From Octopus vulgaris (Eukaryota): a stretch of DNA of 64,000 bases. Positions within the stretch are counted from its first letter, which is position 1. Each line of letters opens with the position of its first letter. The notes under the pieces were generated by a model that ran no database searches, was not told where the DNA came from, and worked only from the letters and a program-made list of their open reading frames with translations. The position numbers and the translations under genes are program-made. Below, in pieces: positions 2,713-57,165 of the stretch. The stretch is from positions 44,454,001-44,518,000 of the forward strand of contig OX597818.1 of assembly GCA_951406725.2 (NCBI GenBank). The letters run 5' to 3'.

Positions 2713-4735
2713 TAATAATGATAATAATAATAATATTTATTTATCTATTTCTTTTATGACTAGGTATATATGAAATTATCACTTCGCTGCCAACAAGGAA
2801 ACTAGAGACAAGAACATATATTATCATTTGTGACACATAGAAATGTAAGTCGCTGATTTCCCCAGGTATATAGATATTCTAATGTCATTTTTATTCATTG
2901 TTGTTACTAAGTGTGCTACAGTTAACTGTAGCTTATATCAGGTCTTAAGTCACTGTGCAGAAAGTAATAAGATTTCAGCCATGAAAAGAGATTTAGGAGA
3001 ATTGTTTTCAGCAATGATATTTGGGATTCCCGTGATATCTAAAACCAGATAAACAGAAGTGTTATAAGTAAGCACACTGTAATACAATGCCAAAGCTGAC
3101 ATGGCAGTACCCTTATAATTTGGTTAACTTGTTGATTGTATTGTATTGTATGGTGAGCAAATTATATTCAAAGCCTCAATAAAAACACTATCTTTTTATT
3201 GTCATATAAATTACAGACTCTATACACAAAGTAAATAAAATTCTTGCTGAGAAATAATAACTTTATTTTCTGATACAATTTATGATAAGTAGTGTTGGTT
3301 ATAGAATACAAGTTCAGCGAATAAATCTATTTATGGCATGTTTGGATATTGGAAATTTGGTTTTATTATAAAATCATTGAAAATAAAAATGACTGTGATA
3401 AATGACTGTTTGTATTAAAGAAACTGTGTAATTTTGGTAGTGTCTACTAAAAGTTAACTCCATCAGCTGAGGGTATATGAGCAGTCAGCTGAAATAATGT
3501 AACGAAAATAGTTTGTGTTGTTCATCAAATCAATGAAGCCAAGTCAGAAGGGGAGTAAGATCTAAATTAGGATTGTGGATTCTAAAATTATGTAGACTAT
3601 ACAAAAACATTCCACTTCTGAGAGGAAAGGGATATGTAGACTTTCACAATATAATTAATGATGCATAACATGCTTATATTTAGAATGAGGATTAAGCCAA
3701 TGTCTGCATATGAATCTGAAATAACAAATGAGATGCTATTGGTATATTTGTGGTTGGAAATTTTCTATGCAGCAAAAGTGGCTAAAAAATCCATAGAGAA
3801 GACATGAAATTTTATATATTTATATATATATATATATATATATTCTAATCACTGCATCCAATGCTGTCTGAGTATCGAGGCAATGATACTGGACATATCT
3901 GTATCTTATCACCCTTGCAATAATTTTTATTTGATCTCTCATTCACCCACCTCAAAACGCCAATGTATAAATGTTTGTATTAGATAAATTTGTAACCAAT
4001 ACAGCCAACCATCACTCATCACTATTGCTACCATCACTCCCTCTCCCACTGGGAAACATGTAGCTGCCAAAACTATTTCTCTTCCATTCCCTCTTACTCT
4101 GTTTCTCCCTTCATACTCTCACTGCATTCACCTACTCATCCTGGCTCTTCTGTCATCATTCTCTCTCTTCTTTACTCTCTTGGTCATGTTGCCTTGTGCT
4201 AACAGAAACCCAGACATATACCAGCAAGAGATGATCTGGATTAGACAAACTCATTAGAGTAATAACTACTCTGCAAGCACAGCATCGTCTTCCAAGAGCA
4301 GAGACATAAGAGTTAAGAATGCTAGTCAAAAAATGTCATAATCTGTCTACCTTACAAAAGGGAAGAGTTGAAAAAAATTCAGATCTGTTGTTCATACAAC
4401 ATCGGGACAGTATTCAAAAAGAGGTCTACCAGACATTTTTCATGAACAAAACATAAGAGATCATAACTAAGAACACTGCAATTGTGGCAGTGAATATAAA
4501 TGTGAAATAAGTACCACCTAAAATTAAAGTTAGAAACATTAAAAAAGTTATGATTTATGGGGAGATAGAAAAATCAGGCATGGTTGGTTGTGAAGAGAAA
4601 AGGGAAACCATCAACCCTTGTGGAACAAAGTCAAGATAATAGATAAACAACACTGTAAGATAAAATGACTGAAAGGAATCAGTGTATATACTGGCCTGAT
4701 AGCCTCCTCAGTAGGTCCACTATACAGATGTATAC

Positions 4736-5012
4736 CATCATCATCATCATCATTGTTTAACATCCGCTTTCCATGCTAGCATGGGTTTGACAATTTTGAC
4801 TGAGGGTTGGCAAGCCAGATGGCTGCACCAGGCTCCAATCTTGATCTGGCAGAGTTTCTACAGCTGGATGCCCTTCCTAACGCCAACCACTCCGAGAATG
4901 TAGTGGGTGCTTTTTACGTGCCACCGGCACGGGGGCCAGTCAGGCGGCACTAGTAACAACCTCACTTGAATCTTTTTACACGTGCCACTGGCACAGGTGC
5001 CAGTGAAGCGAC
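4736..5012 (-). mobile_element. Repeat family E
   Basis: (CAT)n then GTTTAACATCCGCTTTCCATGCTAGCATGGG...GGATGCCCTTCCTAACGCCAACC. Confidence 0.75.
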
Positions 5013-51150: not shown

Positions 51151-53305
51151 AAGTAGGAGGATTATGGGCGATTTTCTATTGTTTATTATTTTGTAATCCT
51201 TTTCTATGGCACATTTTGAATTATATGTATGTTTAGAGCTTTCTGCCAGTTAAAAGATAAATCTTTCTGATTCTTGCACAAGATCAGCAATTTTAGAGGG
51301 AGAGTGTTGGTTAATTACATCGACCCCAGTGCGTAACTGGTACCTAATTTATCAATCCTGAAAGGATGGAAGGCAAAGTTAACCTCAGTGGAAATTGAAC
51401 TCTGATCATAATGAGTTGGAAAAAACAGTGCTAAACATGCCCAAATGATTCTACCAACTCACTACTTTCAAATAAAGAAATAATAAAAACAATAATTATT
51501 TTCTTTGACTCACTTGTTCTACTTACTACTAAATGTTTACGAGTCTAATTTCATGGTAGTGTAGAGAACAGTAGCAAGGGCATCCAGTGAAATTAGTTAT
51601 TCCAACAAGAAATGTCAGAAATATATGTGTCTGTGAAAACTATAACACTTAGAAGAAACTAAAGGTAAAAAATAAAAAGATTAATTGAAATATGGGTCAC
51701 ACATATGTAAAGAAAGGCTTCAAGTAATTAGATAATGAAGTGATAATGTGAAGCTATGAGGCACTTATCAATTATGCTTTTTATTTCGAGCCCCAGGCTT
51801 AAGTGTCATTGCAACTAATAATTGTATTAAAAAAAAATGAAAAACGAAGAACAAAATCTTTGTGAGTGTAATTGAATTGGTAACTGTAAAATTTTCTTCT
51901 GAAGTTATATTTATCATAGAAATTGAAACTATAGTTCAAAAATATCTAAAACTAATTTCCAGTGAAAATTAAGATATACAGATACTATATTACCAATAAA
52001 AACTATTGGATGAAAGAAAAGTGCTCTTACATTTAGCATCAACAACATTTCGAAAATGGAACATGATACTGAAAATGATCAGACTGTTACCAAAGTGACT
52101 GTGTATTATTTCTGTTATGATACTGCCACAACAGTTGTGTTATATTCATTACCATTCAGAAGACAATTCCAGCCAGGTGAATAACTTTCTCATTTGGGAA
52201 AACTTGGCAGCGCTTCAGTTTTTGAAGCCCACTCTTCAAACATGTGTCAACTAAAAGATGCAAGTTTGCATAACAAAATATTGGAGGTAAAATGAGAAGC
52301 AAAAGTATCAAACCACAACTTAAGGACAGCAGTTACTCTCTGACAACTAAATCTATAATAGTAGTTAGCTTACAGTACTGACTTGGTTTACACTAGTTAC
52401 TACTATCTCACATCAGCTACTACCGTCTTGAGAAGTATCAATTCTAATTTATATAAGTGGAGTGATTACATCAAGAACAGAGTTATTTCTTAGACGGGTG
52501 GTTCTCAACTGAAGAGTTGGGTATCCATACCCACTACAGTTAGGGAAATCAAAGGCTGGGATATGGAACTTGATCTCTATTATTGTTTTCTATAAATAAA
52601 TATAATAAAATCCTTCTGATTTTCTTTCTTCTTCTGTTTCTCCTGATTATCCAGTAAAATTAATTTATTGATAACTGTTTAAGGACTGATAATTGTGACA
52701 ATTCAACATTATTAAGGTATTGAGATATATTGGGCAATGCTTTCGGTACCTGGAATTGCATAGAGGTTCTGAACCCACGTTTCAGTAGTTTACATATCCT
52801 TAATTAGTTTTCTAAAATAGCAACATTTTCTATTTACCATTTATTCAGGGAGAAAAGAACAACATTCATGGTTCTTTAGGTATTCTTCTTTGCCGCTAAG
52901 ATTGATGAAAAGAAGTTATCCCTCAGACTGGAGGCCTGACATAAATACTTGCAAACCAGGTGGTGGAGTTAAACTAGGTTATAGATTAAGTCTACCACTC
53001 AAGAACTCATAATTCAAAGACACAGAATAGACGCCAGAAGGCATCTGGTCCAAACAATTCTTCCAGTTCACTGTTCAGGAGTAGTAGAATTGTTAGAAGA
53101 CATTACTTACACCTGATTCTACTAGATTTCTAGTGTGGGTCATAGGTCACAACTGAGTTTTATAAATGATTTATAAATTATTCCAAACTGAAGTATTTTC
53201 TACTATTCAAGAAGAAACCTAATTATTTACAAAAAAGAAAATCCATGGCTGTATAAAGATTGTAGTAGGAATATTTCGTTTTCATTTAATTATACTAAAT
53301 AAATT

Positions 53306-53857
53306 CAGTTCTATGTTTAAGAGATAAGGAATTAAGTACATTATTTACATTATTTACATTCGACAGATATTTGTCCCCATCTTGTTTGTTGTTAACACAA
53401 CATTTCAGCTGATATACCCCTCCAGCCTTCATTAAGTGTCTTGGGGAAATTTCGAACCTGGGTTCTTATTCTTAAGGTATTTTTTGATGTTGTTATTATT
53501 ATTATTATTATTACTATTATTATTGTTATTATTATTCAGGTCGCTGCCTAGAATCAAACTCGGAATCTTGGGGTTAGTAGCCCGTGCTCTTAACCACTAT
53601 GACCATGGGCATATGGCGTAGTGGTTAAAAGCACGGGCTACTAACCCCCAAATTCCGAGTCCAATTCCAGGCAGTGACCTGAATAACAATAACAATAATA
53701 ATAATAATATTGAAAAATACCCTGGGAATGAGAACACAGGTTCGAAATTTCCCCAAGACACCTGATGAAGGCTGGAGGGTATATCAGTCGAAACATTGTG
53801 TTAATAAGAAACAAGATGAGGACAAATATCCAGCAAATGTAAGTAATGTAAATAATG
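53306..53857. mobile_element. Palindromic tRNA-headed, hammerhead-tailed element, copy 1 (13-bp TSD)
   Basis: Head-to-head arms centred near 53604; TACTAAATAAATT at 53293-53305 and 53858-53870. Confidence 0.85.
53757..53802 (+). ncRNA. Minimal type I hammerhead motif
   Basis: GACAC-CUGAUGA-A-GGCUG(10 nt)CAGUC-GAAA-CAUU/GUGUU. Confidence 0.6.
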
Positions 53858-54124
53858 TACTAAATAAATTACTATTTATTCAATGTGAGAAAGGAAACAC
53901 CCTTGGGCCATTTAGTTTCTGGTTTGGCCTCTAAGACTGATGAGAGGAAGTTATCCTCAGACCAGAACCTGACCTGATGCTTTTGACTGAATGAACTCTA
54001 CCAAAGATACCCAAAGACCAGGTGGTGGATATACCCAATAGAGTTGGGTATATTTAGTAGAGTTCACTCTTCTAAAGGTACCCAACAAACCAGGCTATGG
54101 ATTATATCTACAACCAAGGAATCT

Positions 54125-54712
54125 TCATCATCATCATCATCATCATCATCATCGTTTAACATCCGTTTTCCATGCTAGCATGGGTTGGACGGTTCAACTG
54201 GGGTTTGGGAAGCTAGAAGGCTGTGCCAGGCCTAGTCTGATCTGGCAGTGTTTCTACAGCTAGATGCCCTTCCTAACGCCAACCACTCTGTGAGTGTAGT
54301 GGGTGCTTTTTATGTGCCACCTGCACAGGTGCCAGACGAGGCTGGCAAACGGCCAGAATCGGATGGTGCATTTTATGTGCCACCGGCATGAGGGCCAGAC
54401 GAGGCTGGCAATGGCCACAATCGGATGGTGTTTTTTTACGTGCCACCGGCATTGGGGCCAGACGAGGCTGGCAACGGCCACAATCGGATGGTGCTTTTTT
54501 ACGTGCCACTAGCACGGAGGCCAGTCAGGGCAGCGCTGGTAATGGCCACGTTCAGATGGTTCTCTTATGTGCCACGGCACTGGTATCACAGCTACAATTT
54601 CCATTGATGTTGATTGATTTCGATTTTGATTTTGATTTTTGATTTTTGATTTTCACTTGCCTTAACAGGTTTTCACAAGTAGGGTTTGTGTCACAAGAAG
54701 GAAAGGTATGCA
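54125..54712 (-). mobile_element. Repeat family E, long copy with about four ~60-bp tandem units
   Basis: (CAT)n start; repeated GCCAGACGAGGCTGGCAA.GGCCA.AATCGGATGGTG..TTTTA.GTGCCAC. Confidence 0.8.
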
Positions 54713-55039
54713 TAGCTAGCTACAAGTACCACAAGGCAACTCATCCAATGCCCTAACAACTCTGTCACTGCTCTATGTTCTAACGATTTTAACAATGAAT
54801 GGAGAATTATGGAAATACAAACATTAAACAGCCTTTTAACATTATTTACTCATTCATTTGCTAAAAAAATAACAGAAATCACAAAGATTATGTTTGAGCA
54901 TATATTTCTTGTTAAATGAAATGAAATATGAACATGAAGCCTTAATGAGTTAGTTATTATCACTGAATATGTGGAAGGTTTAGAGAAGAAATTCCAGTTA
55001 TGGAAGCAAAAATTAGAAACTTTATTCTAGTTTCTGCTT

Positions 55040-55403
55040 GGCGTGGCTGTGTGATAAGAAGTTTGCTTCCCAACCATTGCATGGCACCTTGAGCAAGTGT
55101 CTTCTACTATAGCTATGAGTCAACCAAAGCCTTGTGAGTGGATTTGGTAGAGGGAAACTGAAAGAAGCCCTTCATATATGTGTGTGTGTATGTGTGTGTT
55201 TGTGTGTTTGTCCCCCCCACCATCGCTTGACAACTGATGTTGGCGTGTTTACATCCCTGTAACTTAGCGGTTCAACAAAATACACCGATAGAATAAGTAC
55301 TAGGCTTACAAAGAATATGTCCTGGGGTCGATTCATTCGACTAAAGGGTGTGCTCCAGCATGGCTACAGTCAAATGACTGAAACAAGTAAAAGAATAAAA
55401 GAA
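55040..55403 (+). mobile_element. SINE family A
   Basis: Homology to other copies. Confidence 0.8.
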
Positions 55404-56508
55404 TATCTGAAATTTTCATCATACACCTGCAATGTGGTCACTGCATAGGAGATGCATCATTGACCCAATTACAGTTGTATGACAAAAGTTTGACACCTCT
55501 AGAAATTAATGGAATATGATTTTAACAAATTTTGTGTTTTTAAATGATAAAAATGGCTCTTCCATGATGAAATAAAAAATTATTTTGTAAAATATTTCAG
55601 ATGATTCTAAAACGTTCATAACTGAATATTAATATATTGGAATAACATAGAAAGCTATCACACATTTGTTTACATTTAAAATTTAGGTAGATTTACATAA
55701 AAAATAAATTCTAGCAAAAGAATACATAGCAATGAAGCAGAATGAAAAAAAATGAAGCAAGCCCGACAAAGTCATCTGATAAAAGGAGAAAGATAAATAG
55801 GAGGTGTGTGATGTGTGATTGAATACCACATTCACATTACACACACAGACACACAAATAAATGATCAAGTAAATAAAAAAATACACAAGCCTAGTATAAA
55901 TCAGATTTGTAATATTATATACTAGTAATATAACCTACGTTTCTTCAAGGAAAATGTAATCCGACGTTGAATAAATGCATGTATATGTAAACAAACATAC
56001 ATTCACCCAGAGCCACTCATCTTTCATTTCTTGGAAAGAAACGTAATCACATCCGAAACAACACGTGTATGTAAATATCCGTGTATTCCTATAACTGAAT
56101 GCAGATAGGTATCTACATATACCATCATTGCCATAGTCACCAACACTGCCTTCTTCCACCACCACCACCACCACCGCCGCCACCAATAAAGGGACCTTAG
56201 AACCTTATGCATTCTCCATGCACACACACACACACACACACAGTGCATTCATTTAGATTTATTATTTCGGCTCATACCACTCTTGTAGTGAAACCATGAA
56301 ATCCGTTCATACAATTATTTACAAACTTAATCTACATATATCTCTACTTACACTTACTCAAAAATATTCACACTAGTTTATGTACCAATAACATAACCCA
56401 ACTGAAGGTTATTGATAAAAATAAAATAACCATAATAGATAATATAGACCACCCTATAGAAAATAGGTCATCCTATACAATATAAACTATCCTAAACAAT
56501 ATAGAACT

Positions 56509-56658
56509 GTACATTATTTACATTTGACGGATATTTGTCCACATCTTGTTTGTTGTTAACACAATGTTTCAGCTGGTATACCCTCCAGCCTTCATCAGCT
56601 GTCTTGGGGAAATTTTGAACCTGGGTTCTCATTCCTAAGGTATTTTTCAATGTTGTTA

Positions 56659-56699
<41 letters not shown>

Positions 56700-57055
56700 A
56701 TTATTCAAGTCACTGCTTGGAATTGAATTTGGAATCTTGGGGTTAGTAGCCCACACTCTTAACCACTACACCATATGCCCATAGTTGTGGTGGTTAAGAG
56801 TGCAGGCTACTAACCCTAAGATTCCGAGTTCAATTCTAAGCAGTGACTTGAATAATATTAATAATAATAATAATAAAAACAATATCGAAAAGTACCTTAG
56901 GAATGAGAACCCAGGTTCGGAATCTCCCCAAGACACCTGATGAAGGCTGGAGGGTATATTAGCTGAAACATTGTGTTAACAACAAACAAGATGAGGATAA
57001 ATATCTGTCAAAAGTAAATAATGTACATAATTCCTCATCTCTTAGATATAGAACT
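56509..57055. mobile_element. Palindromic tRNA-headed, hammerhead-tailed element, copy 2 (opposite orientation)
   Basis: Arms centred near 56781; HHR at 56932-56977 (+); ATATAGAACT repeated at 56499-56508 and 57046-57055. Confidence 0.85.
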
Positions 57056-57165
57056 TTCGGGGTCGATAAATTAAGTACCAGTTACGCACTGGGGTCGATG
57101 TAATCGACTTAATCCCTTTGTCTGTCCCCTCTATGTTTAGCCCCTTGTAGGCAATAAAGAAATAA
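57056..57165 (+). mobile_element. SINE family B 3' part
   Basis: TTCGGGGTCGATAAATTAAGTACCAGTTACGCACTGGGG. Confidence 0.75.

Follow-up and report, generated by a model that had tools for sequence, protein, structure and literature searches.

Penelope-like elements (PLEs) leave a signature of inverted 5′-truncated copies, partial tandems and a one-sided tail of 30–40 bp, and the paper that describes it calls the formation of the inverted and tail structures undefined (Craig et al. 2021, PMC8557442). In the Anolis element PAc both strands are nicked and extended, and the tail lies between the two internal sites from which its reverse transcriptase (RT) starts (Frangieh et al. 2024, PMC11167929). 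As reported there, RT starts 111–118 nt into an open reading frame (ORF) that begins at stem II of a hammerhead ribozyme, the first 172 nt of the ORF are needed, and ribozyme cleavage needs protein and is dispensable for insertion in vitro. Here we analyse two palindromic insertions in a 64,000-nt stretch of the Octopus vulgaris genome (contig OX597818.1, positions 44,454,001 to 44,518,000; hereafter the window), which a first-pass annotation, made from the sequence of this stretch, had described as a hybrid of short interspersed element (SINE) and retrozyme, moving as a palindrome with divergent RNA polymerase III (Pol III) promoters, and we compare them with these PLEs.

The arm and its parent element

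Each arm of the two insertions is, with near certainty, the terminal repeat (pLTR) of an autonomous retroelement of the Penelope/Poseidon type in the same genome. We searched the assembly that contains the window (2.8 Gb, 227 contigs) and counted arm positions along a 279-nt column-majority yardstick. The partner element was found by reading upstream of apparent solo arms. A conserved ORF end lies upstream of the tRNA-like head in 13 loci (two of which duplicate others), 28 of 30 loci selected by this ORF end continue straight into the head, and the tail continues into the ORF start. Column majorities of 44 copies give an autonomous unit of 2733 nt (2.7 kb) with a single frame of 835 codons, which reads in the order head with A and B boxes, (AAT)n, ATG, hammerhead, tail, RT, GIY-YIG-type endonuclease (EN), stop, ~25 nt and the next head. 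The ATG lies at about arm position 123, and the frame reads through the hammerhead and the tail.

A near-full natural copy, L211, carries stops and frameshifts and consists of an inverted arm, a partial pLTR, a 2.3-kb ORF and a full pLTR. Its RT matches RVT_1 (E 5.8e-8); the RT profile matches TERT chains weakly (E 0.004), and group II-like RTs match better. The C-terminal EN segment has no match in Pfam and aligns with a PF01541-annotated protein, P0066 (26% identity, E 2e-13). The relatives P0001–P0022 are 57–70% identical, and P0019 (57%) has a similar N-terminal peptide. No named PLE reference was among the homologues. An extra zinc finger in the RT–EN linker separates Neptune/Nematis from Penelope/Poseidon (PMC8557442), and the linker of the present element, inspected by eye, lacks the Cys cluster seen in another family (L157), which by this criterion points to a putative placement in Penelope/Poseidon. 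A GIY-YIG family search of the genome returned other PLE families, none matching the arm, and a scan of viral contigs returned no relative.

Further PLE families were met in the same genome. Window positions 4340–4725 (+) hold a decayed endonuclease-region fragment of an older sister Penelope family, 61–67% identical to the ORF, and ~30 similar old sister copies occur in the genome, some with a homologous head-like segment. L157, L162 and many other loci belong to a separate, apparently young family, Neptune-like by our reading, whose linker has a zinc finger and in which many 781-aa frames are intact; it may still be active.

The family is far beyond chance, because the hammerhead 30-mer has 3612 exact matches in the genome and none in its reversed-sequence control. 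Exact matches number 2207 for a tail 32-mer, 3449 for a head 27-mer and 496 for a 31-mer just upstream of the head, again with no match to the reversed sequences. Scaled by exact-match rates among fetched arms (hammerhead 27/192, tail 15/75, head 27/131, upstream segment 12/49), these counts give rough estimates of ~26,000 hammerhead arms, ~11,000 tails, ~17,000 heads and ~2,000 just-upstream segments. We take the ~11,000 tails as about the number of insertions genome-wide, the samples being chromosome-1-heavy and the figures rough. Arms diverge from the yardstick by 3.6% outside CpG and by 5.6% overall.

Of the 58 tail-to-ORF junction loci, most are partial tandems that include template jumps, and three (L368, L410, L415) are head-to-tail arrays of 220–290-nt hammerhead units, each comprising pLTR and ORF start, in the manner of retrozymes. 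Arms that start at the head (59, three of them ORF-linked) and ORF-linked arms (34) have common variants and similar divergence (4.2 vs 4.6%), and a separate SINE lineage is therefore not apparent; the arm belongs to the partner itself, as its pLTR, and has no private variants, which is not what is expected of a SINE2, a non-autonomous lineage separate from its partner. The Penelope machinery supposed by the first-pass annotation is thus present in the genome, as a pLTR with an 835-aa RT and GIY-YIG ORF. The separate SINE/retrozyme hybrid is not sustained, since ORF ends run into the head, the tail runs into the ORF start and the short arms match the ORF-linked ones.

The palindrome itself is, we are confident, remade at each insertion and corresponds to the known inverted/tail signature of Penelope. 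To describe it we used a fairer sample of 120 loci anchored only on the exact 30- or 32-mer, all on contig 1 (90 loci taken from hammerhead matches, namely the first 97 of the 100 listed, plus the first 30 tail matches), from which 6 duplicates or near-duplicates were removed. Among the 114 loci analysed, 61 are head-to-head with one tail, 9 are head-to-head without a tail, 1 is tail-to-tail and none has two tails; the remaining 43 are single-stranded by the rule used, some of them with a head-only inverted piece or with a partner past the fetched flank. Near-full palindromes account for 18 loci. The outer ends are fixed, one tailed and one tailless, and the centres vary: 55 adjacent one-tail pairs have 53 different start-point pairs, with the more complete arm being the tailed one in 22, the tailless one in 26 and neither in 7. 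Exact target-site duplications (TSDs) of at least 8 nt flank 32 of 60 insertions, as against 2% of shuffled pairs, and their length is variable, mostly 8–14 bp.

Both arms of an insertion derive from one source. Specifically, in 83 pairs (drawn from the 114 loci and 22 top-scoring loci, both window copies included), 48 rare non-CpG variants are common to both arms, compared with 13.3 ± 4.3 for shuffled partners (at most 31 in 2000 shuffles), and end position 248 is the single site at which tailed and tailless arms differ. Subfamily sites are concordant within insertions (site 67 in 36/42, site 163 in 68/71), and 14 of 16 CpG sites tested are discordant between the arms of one insertion. The shared variants together with the discordant CpG sites indicate that the arms were copied from one source at insertion and then decayed separately; gene conversion as the main cause of their likeness is ruled out by the mostly discordant CpG decay. 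In addition, the tailless arm is sometimes the more 5′-complete, which pure fold-back of the first complementary DNA (cDNA) cannot yield, and we therefore infer two RT events on RNA. Self-priming occurs too, as is shown by short fold-back pieces at some of the joints.

These results contradict the proposal that the palindrome is the transposing unit, since start pairs are almost all distinct, arm differences are fixed at one end position alone and the arms share source variants. The expected recurrence of variable TSDs stood; that of the central junction did not, the centre common to the two window copies not being kept genome-wide, and different centres were among the outcomes that the annotation itself had named as refuting its reading. 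Ends that differ by ~30 nt and TSDs mostly of 8–14 bp also set the family apart from foldback elements and miniature inverted-repeat transposable elements (MITEs), and inverted pairs in 70/114 loci, with tandem arrays in 3/58 junction loci, set it apart from the head-to-tail tandems of non-LTR (long terminal repeat) retrozymes.

Several smaller features of the insertions were recorded. An additional AATAAT, which repeats the last 9-nt unit, is frequent at tailless ends (arm positions 248–253), and A at position 248 is found in 30/49 tailless and 15/82 tailed arms, as if RT stutters at its start. L069 and L147 show the rare tail-to-tail arrangement, perhaps an insertion into the tail of an earlier copy. 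Thousands of inverted pairs of 100–250 bp would give double-stranded RNA hairpins in host transcripts, which are possible substrates for A-to-I editing.

The tRNA-like head and the probable start of transcription

Among 30 genomic tRNAs the head is closest to tRNA-Arg(TCG), with identity at 49/73 positions (z 8.4), which bears out the annotation of a tRNA-like head with A and B boxes; both boxes are intact, and ARAGORN calls no tRNA. This tRNA-derived A/B-box head inside a pLTR is the unusual feature of the element. No parental SINE with the same head and another body occurs among 30 head-anchored loci. The pLTRs of relatives showed no tRNA head: a strict A/B pattern was found in 1 of 80 metagenome loci, outside the pLTR, and 13 flanks were inspected by eye. 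Older sister copies have a homologous decayed segment, with B-box-like words in ~6 of 12. No Penelope with a tRNA head was found in the open-access literature, to which this search was confined; an entry for the family could already exist in Repbase, in Dfam or in the supplement or repeat library that accompany PMC13282606. The main text of PMC13282606 lists Penelope and SINE families and describes none.

The 5′ ends of arms accumulate at the head. Of 193 arms, 62 reach position 8, and 50 of those end at positions 0–8, a rate of 0.09 per nt, as against 0.001–0.004 in most bins; the (AAT)n bin has 0.008 and positions 9–25 have 0.017. In a head-anchored sample, 24 of 30 arms start at positions 1–8 and 2 run upstream, and the genome-wide estimates of heads and just-upstream segments agree with this pile-up. 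Furthermore, in 15 of 55 pairs one arm starts at 0–8 and its partner past 28, and many joints begin at 0–4 without a fold-back piece, which fits run-off at an RNA 5′ end. Taken together, these observations make it probable that the RNA 5′ end lies at the head. A second, smaller cluster of 5′ ends occurs ~47–62 nt upstream of the head (L098, L128, L146, L381, L393, L399, L405).

RNA reads of an organism B have loose ends clustering at the same two outer ends of the element. In the data used (3 raw-read runs and 1 contig set, of 24 runs), the two mates are about equal and depth drops from 3′ to 5′, paralleling genomic copy number; the reads are therefore uninformative on promoter or start.

A search for Pol III terminators (TTTT), made after Pol III had been guessed, gave none on the sense strand of the 2733-nt majority unit and none in L211. 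The 44 natural copies have 0.48 TTTT per kb, with no site common to more than three. A base shuffle predicts 5.05 in 2733 nt (P 0.003), and a codon shuffle 2.9 in the ORF, where none is present (P 0.03). Other GIY-YIG PLE families in the genome have 5–15 TTTT per 1.5 kb, and the median is 2.2 per kb among metagenome relatives, for the 62 of 80 that span 1.2 kb or more.

Several observations weigh against Pol III and against a start at the head. The TTTT signal is modest: four of the 62 relatives, with no tRNA head detected, also have no TTTT in the ORF region (two of them, L301 and L324, carry T runs in their pLTRs); GGGG and CCCG are absent from the element too, and A5 runs are depleted; and an order-2 Markov model expects only 2.1 TTTT. 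Palindromic overlap at the centre may account for about 9 of the 50 head starts, those at position 7. Pol III RNA is uncapped, which leaves translation unexplained, and Kojima (PMC10886601) states that non-LTR retrotransposons use Pol II and that the processivity of Pol III is too weak for autonomous elements. Weighing the sequence evidence on both sides, Pol III transcription of the whole protein-coding unit seems possible, somewhat short of an even chance. The fuller proposal is more tentative: an autonomous 2.7-kb element may be transcribed end to end by Pol III, with an ORF purged of terminators, and may shed ~10,000 SINE-like palindromes as RT starts less than 280 nt from the RNA 5′ end. 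Overall, pLTR origin, remaking at each insertion, an RNA start at the head and Pol III for the unit form the best explanation, to which, as a whole, we give as much credence as doubt.

Under this explanation, transcription would start at arm position ~0–2 of the upstream pLTR. The RT-endonuclease, probably as a dimer as modelled for Anolis PAc, would bind just beyond the tail, by analogy with PAc, and nick both strands ~8–14 bp apart. Priming would take place at two internal RNA sites, the tail end at ~279 and ~247, and both cDNAs would run to the RNA 5′ end, at most ~280 nt away, either stopping early or running off. The cDNAs would sometimes fold back briefly and then join head-to-head by microhomology, and the product would be an asymmetric palindrome between TSDs. 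Because PAc needs ORF sequence past the tail, which the short copies lack, these copies would mostly be sterile by-products and likely no further template.

The strongest rival, which we regard as unlikely but serious, keeps the element and the insertion route and lets a Pol II promoter, TATA-like or internal, start the RNA at the head, the tRNA-like segment being a captured relic within the 5′ leader. In tandem context a TATA-like word with a CA start does lie ~30 nt upstream of the head, which fits Pol II too; TATA-like words occur in several related pLTRs; the one mapped Penelope promoter, that of D. virilis, resembles the TATA-less internal promoters of long interspersed elements (PMC2377424); and capped RNA accounts for translation. 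Pol II leaves unexplained, however, why the start coincides with the tRNA 5′ end, why the A and B boxes are intact without a called tRNA fold and why TTTT is missing.

It is improbable that the short A/B-box copies form a single-arm SINE-like by-lineage, transcribed by Pol III and mobilised in trans, with the ORF RNA made by Pol II. Head-start arms do outnumber ORF-linked arms by ~7:1, solo head-start arms with a TSD exist (L051, L084), and Schistosoma Sm-alpha combines a Pol III promoter with a hammerhead (PMC6765202), but head-start arms differ from ORF-linked arms neither in private variants nor in age, the short copies lack the ORF sequence past the tail that PAc needs (PMC11167929), and the TTTT-free ORF is left unexplained. 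Quite improbable, too, is a head that is no RNA start, at which RT on a long tandem RNA stalls or folds back. The head start does lie inside a predicted −9.6 kcal/mol RNA hairpin, at about −9 to +14, and by eye ~15 of 59 junctions have a short fold-back piece; ~20 of 59, however, start at 0–4 without one, the fold-back pieces copy the head itself and not the upstream template, and some microhomology joins imply cDNA ends at 0–2, before the hairpin could close. The movement of the whole palindrome, as a SINE/retrozyme hybrid with divergent Pol III promoters or as a foldback/MITE DNA transposon, has very little in its favour, since the best full-length palindrome matches, alike with fixed outer and tail ends and variable TSDs, come from a query that selects for them, whereas centres are variable, near-full palindromes are few, no sequence is arm-specific, arms continue into the ORF, and variable TSD lengths with unequal ends do not fit a terminal-inverted-repeat transposon.

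The two copies in the window

Each window copy consists of two arms of ~250–300 nt placed head-to-head, whose arm pieces are 85–91% complementary. Reading outward, each arm has a tRNA-like head, (AAT)n, the hammerhead motif and an end, which in one arm is ~30 bases longer. Table 1 gives the coordinates. The structure read by the first-pass annotation was recovered in full here: head-to-head elements in opposite orientation with the same asymmetry, the 13-bp TSD of copy 1, the boxes, the (AAT)n and the hammerhead motifs. A local duplication is ruled out, as that annotation had assumed, because the flanks of the two copies are unrelated and copy 1 alone has a 9-nt duplication, present in both its arms. 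A clean TSD is missing from copy 2, where the 10-nt direct repeat at the ends coincides with the copy's own tail end. Neither a tRNA nor a hammerhead was called in the window elements by ARAGORN and Rfam; both were identified by our own sequence comparisons.

Table 1. Features of the two inverted insertions, in window coordinates.
Feature	Position	Strand	Basis or detail
Copy 1, inverted two-arm insertion of the Penelope pLTR	53306..53857	.	arm comparison
Copy 1 left TSD, 13 bp	53293..53305	+	flank comparison
Copy 1 right TSD, 13 bp	53858..53870	+	flank comparison
Copy 1 tailed arm	53306..53603	-	truncated at the centre, ~10–15 nt inside the head
Copy 1 one-sided ~31-nt tail	53306..53336	-	corresponds to early ORF codons in the autonomous element
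Copy 1 left hammerhead motif	53394..53440	-	core and helix III decayed
Copy 1 tailless arm	53604..53857	+	complete to the first base of the head
Copy 1 tRNA-like head	53604..53681	+	A box 53614–53624, B box 53657–53667
Copy 1 (AAT/AAC)n spacer	53682..53709	+	from head to ORF start
Copy 1 ATG	53728..53730	+	opens the family's 835-aa ORF, frame through the hammerhead; this copy lacks the ORF body
Copy 1 minimal type I hammerhead motif	53757..53802	+	predicted cut 53797/53798; helix III CG decayed to CA
Copy 2, inverted two-arm insertion	56509..57055	.	orientation opposite to copy 1
Copy 2 tailless arm	56509..56780	-	A box 56763–56773, B box 56720–56730, hammerhead motif 56558–56603
Copy 2 tailed arm	56781..57055	+	B box 56826–56836, hammerhead motif 56932–56977, tail 57026–57055
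10-nt direct repeat of copy 2 tail end	56499..56508	+	same as 57046–57055; ambiguous TSD

The hammerhead motif comprises a 5-bp stem I, the core, an extra A, a 5-bp stem II (G10.1–C11.1), an A-CG-U helix III and a GUU site. By sequence it fits the PLE-type features given in PMC4209133, namely the core CUGAnGA...GAAA...UH, an extra base before 10.1 and a palindromic 15.2–16.2, as predicted for a minimal type I hammerhead with a palindromic CG helix III. The CG had been proposed as the ancestral state and is indeed the majority state among 155 natural arms (C in 117, G in 100). None of the four window arms retains it, and in the left arm of copy 1 the core is broken as well. The predicted energy of the helix III self-duplex is −5.7 kcal/mol with CG, as against 0.1 and −1.4 for the decayed forms. 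Folding of the full arm predicts stem II (P 0.94) and disfavours stem I (P 0.02). An informal look at whether 5′ ends cluster where the hammerhead cuts (position 195) met a few cases and no clear peak.

The surroundings of the two copies hold other repeats. Positions 57056–57160 and 55040–55400 contain what we take to be SINE-like fragments; the first adjoins the copy 2 tail and may have removed the right flank of that copy. An old direct repeat, about three-quarters identical, flanks copy 1 (52835–52990 and 53870–54030), and positions 53975–54081 form a hairpin. An abundant (CAT)n-headed repeat with 63-nt tandem units lies at 54120–54600 and 4737–5010, with 3789 candidates genome-wide.

Comparison with known systems

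The ~11,000 short insertions are, regardless of Pol III, an in vivo record of how the inverted and tail structures of Penelope form, showing that two tails never occur, that the arms come from one source, that either arm may be the longer and that short fold-backs occur at the joint. If Pol III transcription of the unit proves true, it would break the rule, stated in PMC10886601, that Pol II serves autonomous retrotransposons and Pol III serves SINEs alone; it would also show how an autonomous element can give rise directly to SINE-like copies, and would raise the question of how uncapped RNA is translated. Such a family may be entered by automatic annotation as two, a SINE or MITE and a Penelope.

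In mechanism the element resembles PAc as reported (PMC11167929). Both have one ORF with RT plus, at the C terminus, an EN of GIY-YIG type, an ORF that overlaps the pLTR hammerhead, and two fixed ends ~30 nt apart (the tail), equally far from the ribozyme core in both; in the present element the tail end lies 115 nt past core A9. Unlike the PAc described there, the present pLTR opens with a tRNA-derived A/B-box head and (AAT)n, at which 5′ ends pile up, its sense strand has no TTTT, and its ATG lies ~38 nt upstream of the ribozyme core and not at stem II. Partial tandems and an inverted 5′-truncated copy are shared with the Penelope/Poseidon PLEs of PMC8557442.

Schistosoma Sm-alpha and Sj-alpha (PMC6765202) are likewise high-copy repeats in which a hammerhead comes after a Pol III-type promoter. 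That source describes them as non-coding and often tandem, whereas the module of the present family serves a protein-coding element as its pLTR and is inserted as inverted pairs. Animal non-LTR retrozymes are likewise non-coding, PLE-related and equipped with a type I hammerhead (PMC7761336; bioRxiv 10.64898/2026.07.22.740005), and the few tandem arrays of 220–290-nt units in the present family are like them; in these two accounts, however, retrozymes are head-to-tail tandems described as promoterless, whereas the present copies are mostly inverted pairs or solos with a tRNA-like head. The TRIMp3 families Cassandra, Helenus and Ajax have captured a small-RNA-derived Pol III promoter in a terminal repeat (Kojima 2024, PMC10886601), but they are presented there as short non-autonomous LTR elements, whereas the present element is autonomous, 2.7 kb long and of Penelope type. 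Among the systems described in these sources, the closest are thus Poseidon PAc for the mechanism, Sm-alpha for the module of Pol III promoter and hammerhead, and TRIMp3 for the captured Pol III promoter.

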